Positions 1,687 to 13,461 of a stretch of DNA of 35,543 nucleotides are shown here, one piece after another. Position 1 is the first letter of the stretch, and every line of letters begins with the position of its first letter. This stretch comes from a virus, in UHGV virus genome UHGV-0085052; one strand, given 5' to 3'. The notes beneath the pieces were generated by a model. That model was not told the DNA's origin. It did not search any database and saw only the letters and a program-made list of their open reading frames with translations. Both the position numbers and the translations under genes were made by a program.

Positions 1687-1865
1687 GCCTACTAAAGTCT
1701 GTTTCATAGAGAGAGTTATTTGCGATTAAAAAGGTATTTGGTCACAACCAGCACGATAGAGAATACATCTTTCAAAGTACCGCCCATATAAAACAGTTAC
1801 ATATGCACTTGATGACTAAGCTGGCACCAGGTTAACACCAGGCGCCAGCTTGAAGGAGACTTCAG

Positions 1866-2789
1866 TTATTGGTTTCTGAGGAAAGCGATTCTTGAAAGGG
1901 TCATTTGCGTCTGGCAGTCGACCATTTTCTTGACTTCAGCATCTGTTCCCTGCATTGAAACTTTACCGCACATAGCATCCTTAGTTTTGATCCACTGGCG
2001 CTGAGAAGGCAGCAACTCTTTTTTCTTCGCCGGGGTTAACTTGCTCCAGACGGTATTCAAATCAGAGTCAGCATTTGCAAATGCCATTCGGGACTGATCA
2101 AGGCTTTCAGATTTTTGCGGCTGAAGTTGTGCCTGCCTCTCTTTTTGCTTCTCCGCCTCATACCTGGCCTGTTCCTGTGCCCTGAGTTGCACCTGTTGTT
2201 CCGCTTCAATTTGACTCTGTTGGGCATCCTTAGCCTGCTGGATTTTCTGCTGCTCAACGATCGGGTTGATAATGGAAAGCGATGTCAGTAAAGCGGCGCC
2301 CACTGATATCGGATTATCAGAAGAGGTTTTTACAAAAACGTTTTTCTGATCGTCGGTCGCCTGCACGGTGTAGGTGATACGTTTTGAAAAGGCGTTTGCG
2401 TTGTTCTCCAAAAACAGATTTTCCATTTGCTTATCGAGATTACGATTAAAATTCTTTCTGTAAGCATCAGAAAGCTGGATGTACTCGTTCGCAGGTAGAG
2501 TCATCGTCACGGTCCCTTCACAAGTTTTCATTGTGCTGCCCGTGTCACTTGATGTTGTGGAGATTTCAGAGATGGCTAGTTTGATCTTGTCCAATGTGCT
2601 TCGTTTGGTCTGATTAGTGACATCAGGGTATTTATCGACCTGTTCAGAGAGTCCTTCATAAGCAGATTTTTTTAATAAATCCATAAGTGCTGACTGGGTT
2701 ATTTCCGAAGAACAGCCGATCACATCTTTTTTGTTATCACAGCCTGTAAGGGCAATGGCGAGTAAGAGTACTGAGTATTTTAATCTCAT
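1866..2789 (-). CDS. Lipoprotein with C-terminal DUF1311/LprI-like domain
   Basis: N-terminal signal peptide with lipobox (LLAIALTGC); Gln/Glu-rich coiled-coil-like middle; C-terminal ADSDLN...W...QRQWIKTKDAMC...VDCQTQMTLSRI pattern resembling DUF1311. Confidence 0.55.
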   Translation of the reverse strand: MRLKYSVLLLAIALTGCDNKKDVIGCSSEITQSALMDLLKKSAYEGLSEQVDKYPDVTNQTKRSTLDKIKLAISEISTTSSDTGSTMKTCEGTVTMTLPANEYIQLSDAYRKNFNRNLDKQMENLFLENNANAFSKRITYTVQATDDQKNVFVKTSSDNPISVGAALLTSLSIINPIVEQQKIQQAKDAQQSQIEAEQQVQLRAQEQARYEAEKQKERQAQLQPQKSESLDQSRMAFANADSDLNTVWSKLTPAKKKELLPSQRQWIKTKDAMCGKVSMQGTDAEVKKMVDCQTQMTLSRIAFLRNQ

Positions 2790-3242
2790 GAATTCCCTTT
2801 AGAGTAAGGATTGGTTTTTAAGACGCGGTCTGTAATCAGTTCCGAGAGCTACAGTAAACAACGCTGAGCACTGAACGCATCACAGGCAAGGTAAAAGGTG
2901 ATATCGGCAAAGGCTGTGAAACCTTTAATTCAACAGATGGGAACGGTATGCACAGGATCCTGTAACGACGCTCCCAAAACCGGAAACCTGCAGGGCATGT
3001 TTTCGCTGCTGAACTTAATATACGAACCTGCACTATCATGAACATATTTTATATCGTTATACCCCGAGTGATTGTGCCCGGCAATGGATAGTGTCCTGGA
3101 GGAACTATTTCTACTGTAAAAGGTAGACATTTAATTTCAGTGTGGAATTATTCCCTGCTGTTAATAACCATGGCTGTATATGGCACCGAGTAGGCATTGA
3201 TTTTTTTTAAATTCAATTGCGTTATTAAAATTACTTCATTTT

Positions 3243-3803
3243 TTATTTTAAAGTACAGCCTGCCCGAAATGCACTGCTAATTTCAACATATTCCGCTCTG
3301 GCCGTACCTCTAAGTTTCTGAGACTCACGTTCAAAACTCGCCAAATCTTCCTTACATTTTGCCGAAGTAGACTGGAATCCTTTCCCGCACATCTGAAATG
3401 TGACTGTCGGATCCGCAAATCGGGTACGCTGGGCGTAAGCCTGGCAAACAGCGGATGCCCTCGCTTGTTTTTGTCGTGGGCTTAACGGGCGTGCTGGTGT
3501 AGCCTGTTCTGCCCTCTCCATTTTCAGGCGGTAGCAGCTTAAATTACGAGAGGCGATCACCTTTTTAATAGCCTGGGCGCGGCGATAATTTTCATTAAAT
3601 TCAGGATGAGATGATGGATTAAGGTTGAGCAATGGCTCTATATTATCTTCTGCTTGGCAAAGCTGTGAATCGGTGTACTGCGCAAGTTTTGCCGCCTCGA
3701 TTGCAGCCGGATCTGGTTGTGAATTTTTTGGGGTATGGCTTACACATCCGGACAGCGTAAATCCAGCGGTCAGTGCTAAGATGATTTTTGATATTCCGTT
3801 CAT
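3243..3803 (-). CDS. Cysteine-rich lipoprotein, unknown function
   Basis: Signal peptide plus lipobox (LTAGFTLSGC); 8 Cys; no family recognised. Confidence 0.45.
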   Translation of the reverse strand: MNGISKIILALTAGFTLSGCVSHTPKNSQPDPAAIEAAKLAQYTDSQLCQAEDNIEPLLNLNPSSHPEFNENYRRAQAIKKVIASRNLSCYRLKMERAEQATPARPLSPRQKQARASAVCQAYAQRTRFADPTVTFQMCGKGFQSTSAKCKEDLASFERESQKLRGTARAEYVEISSAFRAGCTLK

Positions 3804-3934
3804 TTTCTATTCCTGTTTCGATGTTTTGGTGGTGCACTTTCCCCACTCGGATAAGATTATGCATTCGGATTCGAGTGATGAGGCAACGCCATATAGGCGA
3901 TGGCAGCCAGCACGATGGTGATTAAAATATTTAA

Positions 3935-5170
3935 TCAGAATTTCCGTTCTTTCCAGCGTTTAACCAACGCGGCCATGTTCAGCGGCCATAATTTAGGCTC
4001 AATCACTTTGCCTTCAAACATCGCGCCGAGCTCAATACCTGGGGCAAAATGTACGGTCATTGTTTCAGGGTTGACGGCCATCAGCTCTGCGTCTAGTAAG
4101 TCGTGTATCGTTGGAGTCAACAACAGGCCATTATCAGCGCTAAAATTGCCTGAGGTAGCTGGCTCAATGTGCGCCGCTTGCAATCGTTCGCCGTTCTGCC
4201 AGCCAGTCACCGCGCAACGGCCAGCAAAATTATTCCATACCCATTCAACAAACTGCATATGCGCCGTCGCGTCGCGCTGCTCAACGATGCGCTGCGCGGT
4301 TCGGGTACTGTGGAGTTTGGCAGGTTGGCCAAGTGCGGGCGCGGGTTTCTCTTCCTCCACGACGACCACTACTTCCTGCGACATGATGATTGGATCATCG
4401 GCTACCAGTTCCGGAACAACGTCGGCCAGCTTCTCGGCTTCTCGGATGATTTGCTTTTCTTCCTGCTCATCCAGGTACCGCTGCACCAGTTCAATGGTCG
4501 TGGTGGCTTCATGCTGGTGTTTGTGGATATAAAGCTCAACATCACGACGCTGGCTGGCTGGAATGTGTTTTGCCAGAAAATCCTGTAGGACGCGATTATC
4601 CAGCTTTGTCGTAACTTTTGATGTCATGCTCACAGAATCATACCGTTTCGGTGTTTCCATCTGCGTTGATTGCAGGCCTGGTAATTCGGTGTTGATTTGA
4701 GCGGAAACCTTGCGCGGGATGATTGTCGGCGTAAATGCTGGCGTGCTGGCCTGGGACGTGCCACGGCGACGGGCATTCTCCCAAAGGGCTTCTGTTTCAG
4801 GGTTTTTGCGTGCGCCTGGCTTTTGCATAGGCATAGTGCGAATCAGCGCTTCCCAGCCCATATTGACCTTCTGTTTGGCCTCGCGGCGTTTATCGGCCAG
4901 CGTAGGTTTTGATGGTCGTTTTTTGGAGAGCGCTTTCTCTGGTTTTAATTTGATGCCGCGCGATAAACCATTTATCAGTGTTGGATGCACTGATAAGGCT
5001 TTGGCCAATTGCAAACCGTTTAAATTGCTGCCATCTGTATAAGCGTACATAAACAAATCCGCCCAGCCATCATGTTGAGGGGTCATACCCACGCTGGTTA
5101 AGGCTGCGCGAATCTCTTTTTTGCGAGCTTTGTCCAAGTTAAATTTTGGGGTTTTATTTCGCTTAGTCAT
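3935..5170 (-). CDS. HNH-type endonuclease domain protein (unknown N-terminal domain, basic low-complexity linker, C-terminal HNH)
   Basis: C-terminal motif CAVTGW...LQAAHIEP...NGLLLTPTIHDLLD matches the HNH nuclease pattern (Cys/His ligands plus conserved Asn). Confidence 0.55.
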   Translation of the reverse strand: MTKRNKTPKFNLDKARKKEIRAALTSVGMTPQHDGWADLFMYAYTDGSNLNGLQLAKALSVHPTLINGLSRGIKLKPEKALSKKRPSKPTLADKRREAKQKVNMGWEALIRTMPMQKPGARKNPETEALWENARRRGTSQASTPAFTPTIIPRKVSAQINTELPGLQSTQMETPKRYDSVSMTSKVTTKLDNRVLQDFLAKHIPASQRRDVELYIHKHQHEATTTIELVQRYLDEQEEKQIIREAEKLADVVPELVADDPIIMSQEVVVVVEEEKPAPALGQPAKLHSTRTAQRIVEQRDATAHMQFVEWVWNNFAGRCAVTGWQNGERLQAAHIEPATSGNFSADNGLLLTPTIHDLLDAELMAVNPETMTVHFAPGIELGAMFEGKVIEPKLWPLNMAALVKRWKERKF

Positions 5171-5250
5171 TTCAGTTCAGCACACTAATAATGGTAACCA
5201 TGACCGCAGCAAACACGATCCCCGAAATATTCATTACTGCCATATATTGG

Positions 5251-6108
<858 letters not shown>

Positions 6109-6298
6109 TCAATTGACAACTTATAGTTCCCACTAGTTAGCATTAAGATTTTTACAGAGAGGAATAATCAATGTCCGCTCTTGGCACAGAGTGGACGAAC
6201 AACTGAAGGTCCGCTGTGAGCGAAGTGCGGACTGTCTTTACCAGTCTTCCTGGCAGATGGCTTTGGACGCAGAAACGATTTCTAAACGCACGAACCCA

Positions 6299-7417
6299 TC
6301 ATTTTTTTGTAATACCAAATTTAATCAATGTTTTTTGTAAATCTTTAATTGATATCTCACCTGAATTACCGGTTTTGAAACTGGATTCAACTTCCTTACA
6401 TCGAATTATTTTCATAGTTCCAGAACTGGTAAGCTCAGTGTCAAATAAATAAAATGGGGCGCAAGGGCTATGTCTTCTATTATCGCGAAGAAGAAATTCG
6501 ATTGGTTCCTTTTTATGTTCATCGAAGCCTGGTCCAAAAATAACACCAGCTATCAATGGTGGGGCATGGTGATGTATACGTCCTGAATTATCATTAGACA
6601 ATGCAAAATTAAGCCTGCCAAAACTTTGCGTCAAATACCTTTTGGTGAGAAAAATTCTTTTTTCATCCTCATATTGCCAGAAGGTATTTTTCACTAAAAG
6701 AGTTTCTCTGATTGCAATATCATCCGTCAAAGCACTTTGAAGAACCGGTATATGTTTTTCATGGTTTCTATATTCAACGCTATCAATAGGGTAGTTAATA
6801 TATTCTTCTGAATAAATATTTCTCTTCAAAGGGATAATATTGTTTTGTGCATGGTAGATAATAACACAACCCTTGAAACCAGCTGCGTAATGTGCCCACA
6901 TCATTGGTTCTAAAGCATTGCTCGAAAATGAAACGCTAAAGACACCTACTCGCAATCCTTTGAGAACCCTCTCTCTAATGCCGCTGGAGCAAATAGATTC
7001 CAGTCGAGATATTGACTTATCTGAATCCTCGAGCACACCAAAATCAATTAAATCGACCTGTTTAATGTGTTGATTTAAAGCAGCCTTTACTTCAGAGTCG
7101 TATTTTGTGAAAACACTTTGAAGCCCTTCTATGGAGCCATCAATAGGAGAGCCTAAAAATATGCGACACAGTTGCTTTGCAAGCCTACCATCGCCCAAAT
7201 CCAGAAAGTCTTTTAAGTTTTTGACACCTAAAATCACCTCGCTTTCTAGAAGACTTTGCCAGAGATCAGGTCTATCCTCAAAGAAATAAGAAGTTTTCAA
7301 GTCATTAGGGTCATTTAGTTGCTCTGTAGACGAAAAATATAATTCGTTGTATCTGATGGCTTTTTCAAAGAAAAAATCCGGCCTGTAATATTTAAATAGA
7401 TACACACAACACCTCAA
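6299..7417 (-). CDS. DUF2971-like protein (372 aa), AT-rich gene
   Basis: N-terminal YLFKYYRPDFFFEKAIRYNELYFSSTEQLNDPND resembles the DUF2971 signature (kYr...LyfSsp..fNDP); codon usage is markedly AT-rich versus neighbours. Confidence 0.45.
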   Translation of the reverse strand: MRCCVYLFKYYRPDFFFEKAIRYNELYFSSTEQLNDPNDLKTSYFFEDRPDLWQSLLESEVILGVKNLKDFLDLGDGRLAKQLCRIFLGSPIDGSIEGLQSVFTKYDSEVKAALNQHIKQVDLIDFGVLEDSDKSISRLESICSSGIRERVLKGLRVGVFSVSFSSNALEPMMWAHYAAGFKGCVIIYHAQNNIIPLKRNIYSEEYINYPIDSVEYRNHEKHIPVLQSALTDDIAIRETLLVKNTFWQYEDEKRIFLTKRYLTQSFGRLNFALSNDNSGRIHHHAPPLIAGVIFGPGFDEHKKEPIEFLLRDNRRHSPCAPFYLFDTELTSSGTMKIIRCKEVESSFKTGNSGEISIKDLQKTLIKFGITKK

Positions 7418-7745
7418 AAAATATGGAAACCCCGATACAATTATTTATCACTTACAAACTACGATTATCAAATAAATACATCCAACGTAGTTCCAGTGTC
7501 ATTCGCAGAGATATCCTTATCTTTTATGATTAGAATGTAAAGCTTTGTGTGATGGTACAACTATGCATCCACAGTCTGCTCTTGCACAAAGCAGCCAGAA
7601 AAGGATTGGCAAATCCACCTGGAGCGAGAAGCGGACTTTCTTCTTGGTTCTGATGGCTCAGAAGTGGCAAGATTATTTGTGGCAATTCAAAACACATTTT
7701 TGACGAACTACGAATGAATGTTGCATCGGTTAAAGGTGATAAATA

Positions 7746-9599
7746 ATGAAGAACGAACGTTACCCGTTGGACTTGGCTATTTCGGTTCAGGACTTCAATA
7801 CGTCAGACTGGAAGGATTCAATTGCCCAAGCTACCCGCGAAGGATATTCGGCGATGTGGCAAGCGCTGTCGGATGCTGCGCGTGATGCCATTGAGCAAGG
7901 ACGAATTGAACACGGCAAGGTATTATGGTTGCTTGCAGATGCCTGTTCGATGATGCTTTCGCCGTCGAGTCCTAATGAACCCTTTAAGCCTTTTGCTGTC
8001 TTTCATGACCGCAGGTCAGTCGTCCCTGATGACATTTCTGATTCAGATATTCTGTTCTTTGCAGAGATCGTTGATGGGGTAGACAACGATTGGCTGAAGG
8101 CGCGACTCAGTGATTTGGTCTGGTTGAAGAGTAAGCCTCGTAACATCGAATTCGCTTTGAAGGCTATCGACGCTTACCGCAGCCTTCCACTAGACACTGA
8201 TACATGGATACATGGAGGGCGGGATTGTTGGTCTCGCGCCATAAGCTTGGCTCGAATGCTAAAAGGTGGTGCTGGAGATAGACTCCAGCAAATTGAGACG
8301 ACAATCGTTGCCGCGTTTCATGCGTCAATTCGAGACGACGGTTTTCTTGGGCTTTGGTTGGCCGACCTTCTAAAATCGAACCGCTTGGGGGGGGCACATC
8401 GAACGGATGTGTCAACGAAGCTAGAAGCGTTGGCCCGCGGGTTTGATGATGAAGGGGATTTGCATAAGGCGCGGGAGTATTTTTCTGCTGCTGCCGAGTG
8501 GTATAAGCTTATTCCTGACGAGGCCAAAGCTGCAGAAATGACAGTATTGGTAGCTGAAGGGTGGGTCAAAGAAGCCGTTGCGCGAGTTGCATCGGAAAGT
8601 CCTAGCCACATGGTGGCAGCGAGCTTTTACGAAAATGCCATTCAGATATACAGAACGATTCCTCGGGCCGAACGCTCTACACATCAGGTCGATGAGCGAA
8701 TTGCCGAGTTGCGAGTCCACCTAAACAATTCGGGAGAGAGAGCTATAGGAGAGATGGGGCTCATTCAAACTCCTGGAGTAGATCTCACTCAGGTTATCGA
8801 AAAGGCGAGGGAATCCGTCACCGGGAAATCTGCACAAAATGCGTTGCTCGCATTTGCGAACCTACATCGTGGCGTGAATGCAGAAGAACTGCGCAACAGT
8901 GCATTGGAAAGAATGCGTCAGCATCCCTTGCAATCACTGTTTGCCGTAACCGTGATGAGTCGCGATGGCAGGGTCATTGCCAAGCGCCCTGCGATGGGAC
9001 TCGGTGGAGAATTGACAGAGGACGACGAAATTGCAATTCGCGCCGAGATGATTCGTGACTATGGAATCTTAGTTAGTATTGTGGTTCAAGCCCACATCTG
9101 GCCAGCCCTTGAAGTACTTTTGCTTGAGCATCGTTTGCGCGAGAGCGATTTTATCGAGTTAGCTCGCCATTCACCCATTGTGCCAAAAGAGCGAGTTGGC
9201 CTTTTCGGCAAGGGACTTTTTGCAGGTTACGAACGTGATTTCGTTACCGCGCTTCATTTACTGATCCCTCAGATTGAGCACTTGGTGCGCGTGCATCTTA
9301 AGCAAGCAGGAACCAAAACCACTAACCTCGACAAGGATGGAATTGAGAACGAGAATGGTATGAGCACGTTGGTGGGTTTGCCAGAGGCCGAGCAAGTATT
9401 TGGTAAAGATCTCGTCTTTGAGTTCGAATCGTTGTTCTGTAACGCCTTTGGTCCAAATTTGCGGAACGAATTGGCTCATGGACTATTGGATGAGGATGGG
9501 TGCAATTCCCCTTTCGCTATTTATGCGTGGTGGCTAGCTTTAAGACTAACATTCAATACATGGTGGAACTCAGCAAATCCTATTTCTGAGCCTCAATAA
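7746..9599 (+). CDS. Large protein (617 aa) with C-terminal HEPN-like Rx4HG motif; candidate RNase/abortive-infection-type effector
   Basis: Mostly alpha-helical-looking sequence; C-terminal FGPNLRNELAHGLLDE contains an R-x4-H-G arrangement typical of HEPN active sites; contains a G8 homopolymer near 8387-8394. Confidence 0.4.
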   Translation: MKNERYPLDLAISVQDFNTSDWKDSIAQATREGYSAMWQALSDAARDAIEQGRIEHGKVLWLLADACSMMLSPSSPNEPFKPFAVFHDRRSVVPDDISDSDILFFAEIVDGVDNDWLKARLSDLVWLKSKPRNIEFALKAIDAYRSLPLDTDTWIHGGRDCWSRAISLARMLKGGAGDRLQQIETTIVAAFHASIRDDGFLGLWLADLLKSNRLGGAHRTDVSTKLEALARGFDDEGDLHKAREYFSAAAEWYKLIPDEAKAAEMTVLVAEGWVKEAVARVASESPSHMVAASFYENAIQIYRTIPRAERSTHQVDERIAELRVHLNNSGERAIGEMGLIQTPGVDLTQVIEKARESVTGKSAQNALLAFANLHRGVNAEELRNSALERMRQHPLQSLFAVTVMSRDGRVIAKRPAMGLGGELTEDDEIAIRAEMIRDYGILVSIVVQAHIWPALEVLLLEHRLRESDFIELARHSPIVPKERVGLFGKGLFAGYERDFVTALHLLIPQIEHLVRVHLKQAGTKTTNLDKDGIENENGMSTLVGLPEAEQVFGKDLVFEFESLFCNAFGPNLRNELAHGLLDEDGCNSPFAIYAWWLALRLTFNTWWNSANPISEPQ

Positions 9600-9847
9600 G
9601 GTAGCGACGAGCAAGCAGTGGCCTAGTAACCCCTCTGAAAAAGCGGCGTGTGCATAAGTAGAATTCTTTATTAACCTAAATGTAGGGGGGAGCTGTGTAT
9701 ACACTGCTCACCCCATTCAATCACACACCGCGATGTTTGTAGTGCCTGCTTCTGGCACAAAGTGGACTGTCAGATTAAATTCGGCTCCTCGCCATAGATG
9801 TGTCAGCTCATATCTTATCTAATACACACAATAATTCTCTCATTCTT

Positions 9848-9910
9848 AGAGAATTATTTTTTTAAGGGTAGGTGTTGACGTTAGAACAAAAGAATAGATA
9901 TTTTTGAAGC
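9848..9910 (+). repeat. Direct repeat copy B (partner of 1540-1600); looks like a remnant of the 3' end of a paralogue of ORF 1396-1653
   Basis: 26-bp exact identity with copy A plus flanking near-identity; not in an ORF here. Confidence 0.7.
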
Positions 9911-9989
9911 ATACAATATGACCTATAACCATAGGATGCATAAAAAAGCTTACGGTGTGGCCTTATAACTTAGCGCAAATAATTTACTA

Positions 9990-10017
9990 ACCCGCTTCGG
10001 CGGGTTTTCTTTTTTAT
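9990..10017 (+). terminator. Intrinsic terminator (CCCGC-TTCG-GCGGG followed by a T-run)
   Basis: Perfect GC stem with tetraloop and TTTTCTTTTTT tail, seen directly. Confidence 0.6.
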
Positions 10018-10049
10018 AGACTTCACGATGTGAAAACGAATAATAAATT

Positions 10050-10727
10050 GTGCAAATAATGCAGTTTTTATTATTCGAGGTAATTATGAAAACCTTCTAT
10101 GAGGACTGGCCTGAAACTTTCGTTAGCCGGTTAGATATGTTACGAGCTCTGGATGATCGCGGCTCGACCCGGAGGCTCTATCTTGAGCGGACCGGAGCAA
10201 TATTTGACGCTCTGGCAGAAGAGATACGTACAGCCGTTGCCGGGCATCCTGAAATCGACGCGAGTGAACTTGATATCGGGCCGCTGTATCGCTATTACAA
10301 ACGTGGAGAAAAGGGGGATCCGCTGGCTGATTTACTTATTGAGTTAGCTCCACCAACCTGTGAACGGGTTCGTATATCTCCTGAAGTGTACACAATCCCG
10401 TATCTGTTTTTTGCACTGTTGATAGCGCAAGGCGCTGACAACGATGCTCGCGATTTTTTCAATATGATGATGCGACCGTTGATCATCGCCTACCGTTTCA
10501 AACAACTGGCGCGTTACCTTGGCACTAAGGGCGGAGGACGACCACAGCACAGATTAAAAAGCGAAGCCATTGAACTGGCTGATCGTTTTTTTACTGAAAA
10601 CCCGACAGCGCCATTATCGCGTGGTGTGCAATACATATCCGGTATTTTTGTGGCGAAATACTCTGACCCACCTGCAGCGTCGACGATTAGAAAATGGTTA
10701 ATTTCAATTTACAGGAGTGATAAATAA
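10050..10727 (+). CDS. Hypothetical protein (moron); probable start at the internal ATG near 10086 (MKTFYEDW...)
   Basis: ORF with RBS-like GAGG before the internal ATG; preceded by a terminator and AT-rich promoter-like DNA and followed by a hairpin; no family recognised. Confidence 0.4.
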   Translation: MQIMQFLLFEVIMKTFYEDWPETFVSRLDMLRALDDRGSTRRLYLERTGAIFDALAEEIRTAVAGHPEIDASELDIGPLYRYYKRGEKGDPLADLLIELAPPTCERVRISPEVYTIPYLFFALLIAQGADNDARDFFNMMMRPLIIAYRFKQLARYLGTKGGGRPQHRLKSEAIELADRFFTENPTAPLSRGVQYISGIFVAKYSDPPAASTIRKWLISIYRSDK

Positions 10728-10878
10728 TGACCATAAACGGTTTAATCCCCTATAAAACCGTTTAATAAAATTCACGACGTGAATATAATTGTTCATTATT
10801 CCCTCATTGTATCTGGCGTTATGACAAATGCCATAAAATACTGTATAAATATACAGGTAATGGCGTTAGGGGGAAGAC

Positions 10879-11058
10879 ATGAATATTCAAGAATCTATAG
10901 GCGAACTACCGGAAACATGCCGAGCTGTTATCAAGCGTAAGGACGGACACATCGTTGGTGTGCGTGTTCTGACTGATGATGAACGGATTGCCAGCCTGAT
11001 GGCGTTTCTCGAGTTGGCAGAAATAGCTGGATATACTATTACACCCCCTGACGCGTAA
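10879..11058 (+). CDS. Small hypothetical ORF (59 aa, below the track cutoff)
   Basis: ATG preceded by GGGGGAAG RBS-like sequence; translation MNIQESIGELPETCRAVIKRKDGHIVGVRVLTDDERIASLMAFLELAEIAGYTITPPDA; located by eye. Confidence 0.2.
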   Translation: MNIQESIGELPETCRAVIKRKDGHIVGVRVLTDDERIASLMAFLELAEIAGYTITPPDA

Positions 11059-11135
11059 AACACGGTATAATATCGGTGCTGGATTGAACACCCGGCACCA
11101 TTTTCTGAACACTGCCGCGCCACCTGGAGTTAACC

Positions 11136-11732
11136 ATGGCGCAGCATTCATTTATCAGGGTATCCGGCGGTTCGCTAATACCCGCGACACCAGACACGCA
11201 ACGCTGGTTGACTGAACGAGTCAAACCAGGTGCTGTTGTGTATGCAGATTTCAAACAGGCGCGTAATCCCGCGTTTCATCGTAAATTTTTCTCACTTCTA
11301 AACCTGGGCTTTGATTACTGGCATCCGTCCGGAGGGGCTATTTCTCCTACGGAGCGCGAACTGGTCCATGGCTACGTTAAGTTACTGGCGTATTACGGTG
11401 GACACGGTGATGTCATGGCAGAGCTGGCTGATCAGTATCTTCTCGATGAGTCGGAAAAGCGCGCGGGGAATATCAGTGCGGTTAAGTCGTTCGAGGCGTT
11501 TCGCGCATGGGCGATTATGGAAGCTGGGTTTTATGACGTTCATCAGATGCCAGACGGCAGTTTGATGCGCGTACCTCGTTCAATCTCGTTTGCTGCGATG
11601 GACGATCTTGAGTTCGGTCAACTGTATTCAGCCGTTTTAGATGTGCTGTGGAATTATATTTTGTTCCGCACGTTTGCCTCTCAGGAGGCCGCTGAAAATG
11701 CTGCCGCGCAGCTGCTGGATTACACATCATGA
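11136..11732 (+). CDS. DUF1367-family lambdoid phage protein
   Basis: Sequence and position (immediately upstream of YbcO-like and Q-like genes) match the conserved DUF1367/YbcO/Q block of enterobacterial lambdoid prophages. Confidence 0.55.
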   Translation: MAQHSFIRVSGGSLIPATPDTQRWLTERVKPGAVVYADFKQARNPAFHRKFFSLLNLGFDYWHPSGGAISPTERELVHGYVKLLAYYGGHGDVMAELADQYLLDESEKRAGNISAVKSFEAFRAWAIMEAGFYDVHQMPDGSLMRVPRSISFAAMDDLEFGQLYSAVLDVLWNYILFRTFASQEAAENAAAQLLDYTS

Positions 11733-12022
11733 AAAAAATCGACCTGAGAAAAGCTGCACGTGGTCGCGCTTGTACTGTGCGTATCCCCGGTGTGTGCAAT
11801 CACAATCCTGAAACCAGCTTACTGGCTCATTATCGTCTCGCCGGAACGTGCGGCACAGCCATCAAACCTCACGATATGCAGGGCGCTATCGCCTGTAGTG
11901 CGTGTCACGATGCTATCGACGGACGTACAAAAACGGATTACGAGTACGACTCATTGTTGTTGATGCACGCTGAGGGAGTTTTAAGAACACTGGCTATCTG
12001 GCGCGATGAGGAGTTTATCTGA
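11729..12022 (+). CDS. YbcO-like (DUF1364) putative nuclease
   Basis: 97 aa, KAARGRACTVRIPGVCNHNPETSLLAHYRL with a Cys/His cluster resembling DLP12 YbcO; start overlaps the upstream stop. Confidence 0.55.
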   Translation: MKKIDLRKAARGRACTVRIPGVCNHNPETSLLAHYRLAGTCGTAIKPHDMQGAIACSACHDAIDGRTKTDYEYDSLLLMHAEGVLRTLAIWRDEEFI

Positions 12023-12693
12023 TGAGTAACGAGTATTTATTGGAATATACCCGCATAAAACTGCGCGCTGCATTACGGGATTTGTCTGGTGGTTCTAAGG
12101 GGCAACTGGAAGCATTGTGTGAGCACCCGCCAGCAGATAAAAACGCATACCCACGCAAACATATTCATCGTGTGCAACTGGAGGACCGGACCGTTGATGC
12201 TCTGGTTACGCCAGTTTATGCCCTGGAAAGTTTCAGCAGACGTCGTCCCGCGCCGCCGATGAATGATTTTGAATTCGCTGATTCATCGTGGCGCCGCGCC
12301 GTGAATTCGCTCGACGTTAGCCAGCAGGCGTGGTTGCGCTATTGCTACGGTGGTCACCTGGCGTTCAAACACCAAACAGCTATTTGTGAGGCTGTCTGGA
12401 TTCGCTATAAAGGACACATCCCCGCGTCAACTCAGAGAAAAGTAGCTAAGCGCCTGCTTTCGTTGGTATGGTTGTCCGTGCAGGCGGTTGCAGCAGCAAA
12501 TAAACGCGAGGATTTTAAGGAGATGGCTGGATCTGCGCTAGCTGGAATGTTGTCTGTTTCTCGTTCCACCTGGTGCGAAACATACTCCCCGCACTGGGAA
12601 GGAATGAAAGAGGCGGTGAGAGCACTTGATGAAGTGGCACTTTTTGCAACTTTGCATCATTATCAGAACCATTTAGACGACGTTTGCGTATAA
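12022..12693 (+). CDS. Late-gene antiterminator Q-like protein
   Basis: 223 aa; position directly upstream of a promoter/terminator pair and the lysis cassette; resembles the Q-family antiterminators of Gifsy/DLP12-type prophages. Confidence 0.55.
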   Translation: MSNEYLLEYTRIKLRAALRDLSGGSKGQLEALCEHPPADKNAYPRKHIHRVQLEDRTVDALVTPVYALESFSRRRPAPPMNDFEFADSSWRRAVNSLDVSQQAWLRYCYGGHLAFKHQTAICEAVWIRYKGHIPASTQRKVAKRLLSLVWLSVQAVAAANKREDFKEMAGSALAGMLSVSRSTWCETYSPHWEGMKEAVRALDEVALFATLHHYQNHLDDVCV

Positions 12694-12762
12694 TGCTTGC
12701 AAAACCGAACAAAATAGGCCATATTTAACGCTAATTTGGTATGTTGCCAAATTTCTAAGAAC
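12685..12762 (+). promoter_or_regulatory. Putative late promoter region (pR'-like, with TATAAT at ~12689-12694 and TTGCAA at ~12697-12702)
   Basis: Promoter-like hexamers between Q and the holin gene; exact -35/-10 pairing is uncertain. Confidence 0.3.
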
Positions 12763-12792
12763 CTCGCCACGGCGGGGTTTTGTCGTTTCTGA
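12763..12792 (+). terminator. tR'-like intrinsic terminator downstream of Q
   Basis: CCTCGC-CACG-GCGGGG stem followed by TTTTGTCGTTTCT, seen directly. Confidence 0.5.
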
Positions 12793-12805
12793 ATCAGGAA
12801 AAATC

Positions 12806-13189
12806 ATGTCTGAACCTCTAACCGCTGGCGTTGCTGCTGGCTCGGCGGGGGTGACGTTTGCTGCGTTATTTCCTGAGGCAACACCTGCAGTGATGATCTG
12901 TGCGCTGGCAGGCGCAGCTCTCTATGTGTTGTCGTCCGGGCAGCATCGATTCTGGAAGCAGGTTATTTTCGCACTCATTTCGTTTGTTGGCGGTGTGTAT
13001 TGCGCTGAGACAGCGTCAGCCATCATTACCGGTATTCTGAATGCGGTGCTGAGTCACCTGAACCCTCCCGTAACAGTAAAAGTCTCTCCCGCCATTGGTG
13101 CACTGGTTGCATCAGTAATCAGCGTTACATCACTGTTGCGGATCATGTCACAAGCTCGTTTATGGAAATCAGATAAGGGGATGAAATAA
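12806..13189 (+). CDS. Putative holin (multi-pass membrane protein)
   Basis: 127 aa with several hydrophobic helices, first gene of the lysis cassette, RBS GGAAAAATC before the ATG. Confidence 0.5.
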   Translation: MSEPLTAGVAAGSAGVTFAALFPEATPAVMICALAGAALYVLSSGQHRFWKQVIFALISFVGGVYCAETASAIITGILNAVLSHLNPPVTVKVSPAIGALVASVISVTSLLRIMSQARLWKSDKGMK

Positions 13190-13461
13190 TGACCCTGCAC
13201 TCTGTCCTCATCAATGCCAATGCAATTATCTGTCTGATGCTGGCACTACGGTTGATGTTTTTTCAAAAAACAGGCCGCTATCGTTTTTTTATCTCACTAA
13301 CTGCTTACCTCGCGATTCTGTCTGCTGCGTGGATAGCCCTACGAATTTTTTACGGGAAATATACACAGGTTGATCCCGCAGAGTTTTTTCTCAACCTCAC
13401 CATCTGTATTGCTGTCTGGCGGGCACGAGGAAATATTTCAAAAATAACAGGAGACAGGTAA
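13189..13461 (+). CDS. Second small membrane protein of the lysis cassette (holin/antiholin-like)
   Basis: 90 aa with 2-3 predicted TM helices; start overlaps the upstream stop (ATGA). Confidence 0.45.
   Translation: MTLHSVLINANAIICLMLALRLMFFQKTGRYRFFISLTAYLAILSAAWIALRIFYGKYTQVDPAEFFLNLTICIAVWRARGNISKITGDR

Follow-up and report, generated by a model that had tools for sequence, protein, structure and literature searches.

What does a lone, AT-rich gene do in the cargo region of a prophage? UHGV-0085052, a viral genome of 35,543 nucleotides (the window, meaning the whole stretch of DNA that was analysed), is a lambdoid prophage of the E. coli type, and its minus strand carries a gene of the DUF2971 family that an earlier note, made from the sequence alone, had singled out as solitary and AT-rich. 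With moderate confidence, we read this gene as a self-contained, single-gene antiphage cassette of the abortive infection (Abi) type, carried as lambdoid cargo that is expressed in the lysogen, whose product would be an ADP-ribosyltransferase (ART)-fold enzyme that uses NAD+ on infection. The observations that carry this reading are family membership, an intact frame under selection, mobility as a unit, the lack of a partner gene and a defence-hotspot context. The gene belongs to a known candidate defence family and does not represent a new kind of system.

An intact and mobile gene of the DUF2971 family

The open reading frame (ORF) reported at 6299-7417 was confirmed on the minus strand, and it encodes 372 amino acids (aa) when begun at TTG 7417. 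The true start of the gene is likely GTG 7405, because of the spacing of a Shine-Dalgarno-like GAGG (Table 1), because the E. coli protein P0001, which is 99% identical to the window protein, is 368 aa long, and because the N-terminal Met of most of the 72 aligned homologues coincides with this codon. Since the Serratia orthologue has an ATG in place of the window's TTG 7417, the 372-aa form is a possible product as well.

A search with the Pfam hidden Markov model bore out the assignment to DUF2971 (PF11185), with 26.7 bits against a curated cut-off of 22 (E=1.5e-5). Positions 1-89 of the model align at residues 169-251 of the 368-aa form (173-255 in the 372-aa numbering). The earlier note had placed the family signature at the N-terminus (YLFKYYRP...ELYFSS..LNDPND); this segment is indeed the best-conserved block of the family, but it lies outside the 89-position model, which aligns elsewhere. 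Among 42 family sequences aligned at approximately 20% identity, N31 and D32 never vary and E21 and P33 hardly do, which indicates that the N-terminal signature is real. Residue 5 is K, R or H in every one of the 42, and the other invariant positions are W170, Y173, G179, Y212, K239, E246, E248 and R250. All of the family-invariant residues are present in the window protein, as are conserved blocks beyond the Pfam model ([YF]-[KRH]-[YF]...ELxF..ELNDP.D at the N-terminus, and W.YE.E.R). DUF2971 was matched by 42/42 diverse relatives.

Five PADLOC models of the candidate defence family PDC-S31 were matched, the best being PDLC04990 (E=6.2e-20) and the other four ranging from E=2.6e-15 to 0.023. 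The match covers part of the model, with residues 155-311 aligned to positions 108-235 of 259, and the protein is therefore assigned to a divergent sub-clade. Database searches returned 109 homologues, nearly all of 365-380 aa, from Enterobacterales, Pseudomonas, Acinetobacter and Vibrio. A profile of the clade matched 23 clusters (at 50% identity) at E<=1e-30, 1,069 at E<=1e-10 and 11,122 at E<=1e-3; the difference between 23 and 11,122 clusters indicates a small clade within a very large DUF2971 family. A phage protein family for DUF2971 exists (phrog_1762), and tblastn against the plasmid collection PLSDB (E<=1e-3) found one Vibrio plasmid only. In 50,697 phage records, the sole tblastn matches were PQ189304, PQ189312, PQ189385 and PQ189305 (H37-H40), which are Vibrio cyclitrophicus 'PE' elements of 13-15 kb with a distant DUF2971 core (approximately 31% identity over residues 145-265). 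These small phage-like elements may carry DUF2971 as cargo.

The gene is as AT-rich as had been claimed: its GC content is 36.1%, compared to 48.4% in the remainder of the window, and in 500-nt bins the GC fraction is 0.36-0.38 at the gene and 0.45-0.51 in the adjoining bins. It is intact and under purifying selection. Comparison with the Serratia orthologue (82% identical) gave 0.10 for the nonsynonymous rate (dN) and 0.75 for the synonymous rate (dS), a dN/dS of approximately 0.13, and the other E. coli copies differ by a single nucleotide.

The backbone of the prophage runs from replication genes (DnaB) through a leftward cargo block to NinB/DUF1367, the antiterminator Q, the lysis genes and terminase, and the DUF2971 gene has the opposite orientation to the replication, Q, lysis and terminase genes. 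Two blocks of the window match a prophage of E. coli E24377A, 1717-6223 at 98.9% identity and 9751-13240 at 97.5%. The variable segment between them (6224-9750) consists of the DUF2971 gene and a DUF7380+DUF4209 gene, while the same slot in E24377A holds approximately 4 kb with three unrelated hypothetical genes. The proposal of recent horizontal acquisition therefore stands in one respect, since an exchanged unit is seen between flanks that are 98-99% identical. The AT-richness of the gene, on the other hand, is no evidence of recent acquisition, because low GC is a property of the family: 14/14 family genes examined are 7-24 points below their flanks, in hosts of 34% to 62% GC. The window allele was present in 0/5,426 complete E. 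coli genomes and a distant relative in 27/5,426 (at most 77% nucleotide identity, in short conserved stretches only); 7 contigs assembled from reads or metagenomes share the arrangement of the window.

Homology between the window and Serratia extends from the stop codon at 6299 to 7565, and thus covers the ORF and 160 nt upstream and nothing more; the exchangeable cassette measures 1.3 kb. Within these 160 nt, identity to Serratia is 95-100% in blocks 7506-7545 and 7466-7485. Synonymous sites in the gene are approximately 53% identical, against 82% for the upstream 160 nt, and the upstream region is therefore constrained; it probably holds the promoter and leader of the gene. The suggestion that the gene has its own promoter region is plausible in view of the co-travel of these 160 nt with the ORF, but no strong sigma-70 consensus was found on the minus strand. 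A consensus promoter scan called none on that strand, and the candidate parts are weak (a -35 TTGATA at 7471-7466 and a TG-extended -10 near 7450-7442). The 160 nt of the DUF2971 unit fold no better than shuffled sequences (z=0.07). The whole 340-nt 5' spacer does beat shuffles (z=-3.3 and -3.1), and this signal sits in 7566-7715 on the plus strand (z=-2.4), inside the 180-nt leader (7566-7745) of the divergent DUF7380+DUF4209 gene, which is a PDC-S39 gene.

Two smaller features were noticed upstream of the gene. The conserved leader contains a 16-codon ORF, MTLELRWMYLFDNRSL, at 7502-7452 on the minus strand, whose Serratia counterpart, VILKLRWMYLFDNRS, has two synonymous Leu changes. It includes MYLF, the N-terminus of the DUF2971 protein; it may encode a leader peptide, may be the remnant of a duplicated gene start, or may be due to chance. 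The sequence GTGATAAATAAT occurs as a perfect inverted repeat of 12 nt at 7440-7451 and 7736-7747, upstream of both divergent genes, with one copy overlapping the putative DUF2971 -10 and the other the PDC-S39 start codon. It was discarded as a meaningful element and is probably due to chance, being at chance level for AT-rich DNA.

The gene is also solitary, as had been stated: the neighbours of its relatives differ in all 9 contexts and none is conserved. Neither a macrodomain gene nor a conserved partner was found beside the gene in the window or in the 9 other contexts. Two E. coli relatives are found in P2 prophages, in the slot that has the replication gene (gpA)/DinI on one side and the portal gene on the other; a PD-T7-4-like DUF4145 gene adjoins one of the two, and a P2-slot relative matches the same PDC-S31 models. 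The Serratia orthologue is at a prophage end, beside umuDC, and a Morganella relative (38% identical) sits alone and on the opposite strand in the same lambdoid slot (DnaB/Dam ... DUF1367/Q). In Thorsellia kenyensis (L006 12309-13705), the DUF2971 homologue has a complete Thoeris system 1.3 kb downstream (ThsB, E=2.5e-78; ThsA with a Macro domain, E=1.3e-121). Further relatives are carried by integrative and conjugative elements (ICEs) of P. aeruginosa, Salmonella and Pantoea.

In the P. aeruginosa ICE copies (L036-L039), a gene for a 100-aa HTH_3 (Xre-type) protein is located 166 nt upstream on the same strand (7532-7834 in L036). It may encode a regulator or antitoxin, and it has no counterpart at the enterobacterial copies.

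Predicted fold, proposed function and alternatives

The earlier note had given the family no assigned biochemical function, which is now outdated, as DUF2971 is predicted to be a DarT/AbiGi-like ART and one member, Aristaios, has been tested as an antiphage protein. The family is huge, yet Aristaios alone has a tested phenotype, and biochemical activity is still undemonstrated for any member in the literature found. DUF2971 has been added to the ARTs as a new family, akin to DarT, AbiGi and Tox-ART-HYD1, in which the ExE motif is conserved, the motif I histidine is poorly conserved and large helical inserts occur (PMC12522546). Aristaios is a 316-aa Lactococcus protein with a DUF2971 domain and an ART-like fold, encoded on plasmid pUCCL641_199 with its sequence under PRJNA1086404, and this one gene makes up an Abi-like antiphage system (Grafakou et al. 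2024, PMC11381338). It acts on phage transcription by an unknown mechanism, according to a 2026 review (PMC13064643), and escape mutants were not sought (PMC12184496).

The AlphaFold2 model of the window protein, which was made with 72 homologues, is confident (predicted local distance difference test, pLDDT, 89.7; predicted template modelling score, pTM, 0.86). The ART structures with which it was compared are listed in Table 1. In the predicted structure, K5 is on strand 2-7, S159-F-S161 closes strand 152-161, with helix 167-173 coming next, and E246-x-E248 opens strand 248-256. A large helical insert (approximately residues 25-150) lies between the K5 strand and S159-F-S161, and there is a C-terminal alpha/beta region. 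The order and the secondary-structure setting of K5, S159-F-S161 and E246-x-E248 match the expectation for an ART core. The motif set in the model resembles a triad of the R-S-E type with Lys in the first position, and the core is predicted to be ART-like.

We infer the activity, target, autoinhibition and trigger of the DUF2971 protein as follows. In the uninfected cell, the protein would be kept inactive, possibly by the large helical insert or by the C-terminal region. Upon infection, NAD+ would be used to ADP-ribosylate a target, with the basic residue K5 on beta1, S159-x-S161 and E246-x-E248 as the motifs involved. The target would most likely be nucleic acid, as for DarT and Tpt1, or else the transcription machinery. 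Phage gene expression would thereby be arrested, and the infected cell would be paid as the cost.

Several results weigh against an antiphage ART cassette. In the window clade, a Lys replaces the motif I His of the H-Y-E ARTs or the corresponding Arg. Foldseek found no significant match in the PDB or BFVD, probably because of the large inserts, and a profile search of PDB sequences found no ART at E<=10. Alignment by hhalign to DarT gave a probability of less than 1%, a weak test since the DarT profile had only 3 sequences, and among the 42 family members Pfam ART families were matched by 0/42 and AbiGi by 0/42 at E<=1. Other methods did reach significance according to PMC12522546. The link of the window protein to Aristaios is one of shared Pfam family and architecture only, and tblastn of the window protein against plasmids (E<=1e-3) gave no Lactococcus match. 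The name PDC-S31 was not found in the literature searched, and PDC-S31 remains a candidate family. As for the genomic context, an Enterobacter relative was found in an ordinary chromosomal neighbourhood (frmRA-queH). The survey for neighbouring defence genes that the earlier note had suggested was favourable in the window, where PD-T4-3 and PDC-S39 flank the gene, but in a pooled PADLOC scan of 143 ORFs located no more than 5 kb from 14 family genes only a minority matched defence models, and most neighbours were mobile-element backbone. These scattered matches were to ThsA/ThsB, DpdF-like, restriction endonuclease (REase)-like and mad-like proteins and phage Dam methylases. The DpdF-like neighbour matched at E=1.7e-93, and three follow-up scans did not place its locus.

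It is possible, though rather unlikely, that the protein is an element-selfish ART-like toxin, which would serve in addiction, in competition with other elements, or in host takeover during lytic growth; phage T4 Alt, ModA and ModB are an example of host takeover by phage ARTs. Prophages or ICEs account for 8/9 contexts, DUF2971 has a PHROG, and the HTH_3 gene in the Pseudomonas ICEs could provide a regulator or antitoxin, all of which fit such a toxin. However, the window and Morganella copies oppose the lytic operons and have their own upstream region, which fits lysogenic and not lytic expression. The family is also found in ICEs and at a plain chromosomal site, an antitoxin-like partner is not conserved, and protection against phage is known for the one relative that has been tested. 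Defence against superinfection and selfishness of the element can coexist.

We regard as improbable a nuclease or other non-ART enzyme, in which D32, E246, E248, K239 and R250 would form a PD-(D/E)xK-like or hydrolytic site and the ART likeness would be topological. A role as a virulence effector that is secreted or injected, which has been proposed for lpg1268, a DUF2971 protein of Legionella, seems very improbable: approximately 18% of DUF2971 proteins are predicted effectors, but 82% of the family are classed as non-effectors (PMC12522546), no signal peptide or secretion-associated neighbour is evident, and the contexts are prophage and ICE defence hotspots in free-living and commensal bacteria. 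Silent or decaying cargo with no present function would suit the rarity of the allele, the lack of a strong promoter consensus and a very AT-rich composition, which we take as typical of an H-NS silencing target, but it is hardly credible in view of the intact frame with its low dN/dS and single-nucleotide divergence among E. coli copies, the retention of every family-invariant residue, and upstream conservation far above that of synonymous sites.

An antiphage ART cassette is the reading that we favour for the window gene. The clade is a convenient model for this family, because it is compact (368 aa), has its own 160-nt control region, has no partner and occurs in E. coli prophage hotspots. 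The questions that it could address are whether DUF2971 is truly an NAD+-dependent ART, what is modified, and how a toxin without an antitoxin is kept silent until infection.

The linker element at the cassette junctions

The earlier note had described a structured intergenic region next to the gene. This was not supported for the 3' spacer (6088-6298), which folds no better than expected (z=+0.24) and contains a repeated sequence element instead. A stable RNA or terminator in this spacer was rejected: no terminator was called, the element had no Rfam match, and covariation was absent, with 0 compensatory pairs among 25 copies. The element, here called the linker, is a conserved sequence element that is not established as an RNA structure.

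The linker is approximately 65 nt long and has two hairpin-like units of the form GTCCGC-N12-GCGGAC and the core TCGCTCACAGCGGACCTTCAG. The copy downstream of the DUF2971 gene is composed of GTCCGC-N12-GCGGAC, CTTCAGTT and GTCCAC-N12-GCGGAC. When the window was scanned with a profile built without this copy, exactly three significant copies were found, all on the minus strand, at both outer junctions of the variable region and at the boundary between its two genes (Table 1). Homology to E24377A breaks at 6223, within a linker copy, and resumes at 9751; the corresponding limits for another prophage (L071) are 6232 and 9748. In L071 (2244-5311), three other small cassettes have a linker copy between each, and in E24377A three linker copies separate the three cargo genes. 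The Serratia DUF2971 unit is flanked by weak linker copies in the same relative orientation.

Scanning IMG/VR with 20 specified core bases returned 29 viral contigs, a set in which some loci are redundant and the core is biased by the search pattern. Two or more linker copies were present in 24/29 contigs, and adjacent pairs were on the same strand in 31/32 cases, with a median spacing of 1.8 kb. The copies were intergenic in 58/61 cases, though ORFs cover 66% of the bases. Linker-bearing loci include L052-L080. A literature search for TCGCTCACAGCGGACCTTCAG retrieved unrelated primers only.

An integron attC-like site was rejected, because the cargo genes have no fixed orientation with respect to the element and an integron integrase is lacking in the vicinity. 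The breaks in homology suggest that the linker is a junction where cargo cassettes are exchanged, and it may serve the swapping of cassettes as a recombination junction or as an insulator. An array of such cassettes would carry single genes, many of them defence genes: DUF2971, PDC-S39, PD-T4-3 and unknowns. As a tentative extension, DUF2971 might be one unit of an undescribed cassette array of enterobacterial prophages, in which the TCGCTCACAGCGGACCTTCAG linkers would act as recombination junctions and perhaps as transcriptional insulators, and DUF2971 itself would be an antitoxin-free, self-sensing nucleic-acid ART. A linker at every cassette junction offers a testable sequence basis for the exchange of prophage cargo and defence genes. 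This linker-delimited architecture is a more unusual lead than the DUF2971 gene itself and merits a separate study.

The divergent neighbour of the DUF2971 gene is a PDC-S39 gene for a 617-aa protein. The HEPN-like label given to it earlier was fair, as the protein has a DUF4209 domain and a C-terminal RNELAH (Rx4H) motif, and DUF4209 was treated in a paper on the HEPN superfamily (PMC3710099). Among the 5,426 complete E. coli genomes, none showed a copy of the PDC-S39 neighbour at megablast level (roughly at least 85% identity). A functional pairing of DUF2971 with PDC-S39 was rejected: the pair was seen in the prophage lineage of the window and in none of the other contexts, and a GC gap of approximately 14 points and a linker copy between the genes also count against it. 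Four more leftward cargo genes accompany DUF2971 on the minus strand at 1866-6087, encoding an LprI-family protein, a 186-aa unknown, a 411-aa HNH_2 protein and PD-T4-3. Together with DUF2971, they form a prophage defence/cargo island that is transcribed against the lytic genes.

Table 1. Features of the window and related loci, and ART structures compared with the model of the DUF2971 protein
Feature	Position	Strand	Value	Remarks
DUF2971 / PDC-S31 coding sequence	6299..7405	(-)		368 aa from GTG 7405; longest ORF reaches TTG 7417
Shine-Dalgarno-like GAGG	7415-7412	(-)		6 nt 5' of GTG 7405; kept in Serratia
Conserved upstream region	7406..7565	(-)		Travels with ORF; 82% identical to Serratia
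Linker copy	6166..6233	(-)	E=2.6e-18	66 nt past DUF2971 stop
Degenerate linker copy	7572..7643	(-)	E=6e-4	Between DUF2971 and PDC-S39 cassettes, just beyond end of Serratia homology at 7565
Linker half-copy	9739..9776	(-)	E=5e-4	Right junction of variable region
Linker copies in L001	13172-13233, 14880-14942, 16074-16141
GIY-YIG protein = PD-T4-3	5251..6087	(-)	E=6.5e-138 (PADLOC)	Downstream of DUF2971 gene, same strand
DUF7380+DUF4209 protein (617 aa) = PDC-S39	7746..9599	(+)	E=3.9e-265 (PADLOC)	Divergent neighbour
ART structure: M. tuberculosis DarT			7.5	131 residues aligned
ART structure: yeast Tpt1			7.0
ART structure: Thermus DarT			6.9
ART structure: Thermosipho DarTG			6.7
ART structure: E. 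coli DarT1			6.2
ART structure: KptA			6.2

Comparison with known systems

The window system and Aristaios share a single gene, a DUF2971 domain and a predicted ART-like fold. They differ in that Aristaios has 316 aa and comes from a Gram-positive plasmid, while the window protein has 368 aa and comes from an enterobacterial prophage. The likeness to PDC-S31 consists of the HMM match, the single-gene architecture and the defence-island setting.

AbiG is a two-gene system made up of AbiGi and AbiGii, in contrast to the single gene of the window system. DarT, the ART of DarTG that modifies thymidine or guanosine in single-stranded DNA, has the macrodomain antitoxin DarG, and the window gene is not a DarTG system because it has no macrodomain partner. 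Compared to DarT, the window protein also has approximately 160 extra residues (the helical insert and the C-terminal region) and a Lys in place of the motif I His. By sequence, the nearest known ART-like family to DUF2971 is AbiGi (PMC12522546), and AbiG interferes with phage transcription and replication (PMC13064643).

In its genomic placement, the gene is similar to the morons and hotspots of temperate phages, such as the P2 gpA-portal slot and the cargo of the lambdoid nin region, with which it shares the opposite orientation, an upstream region of its own and AT-richness. The swapping of DUF2971 cargo between otherwise near-identical prophages is also moron-like. Unlike the known morons and hotspots, for which no description of such an arrangement was found, the cassettes of the window are separated by a conserved element of approximately 65 nt, and it is at this element that homology between prophages breaks.

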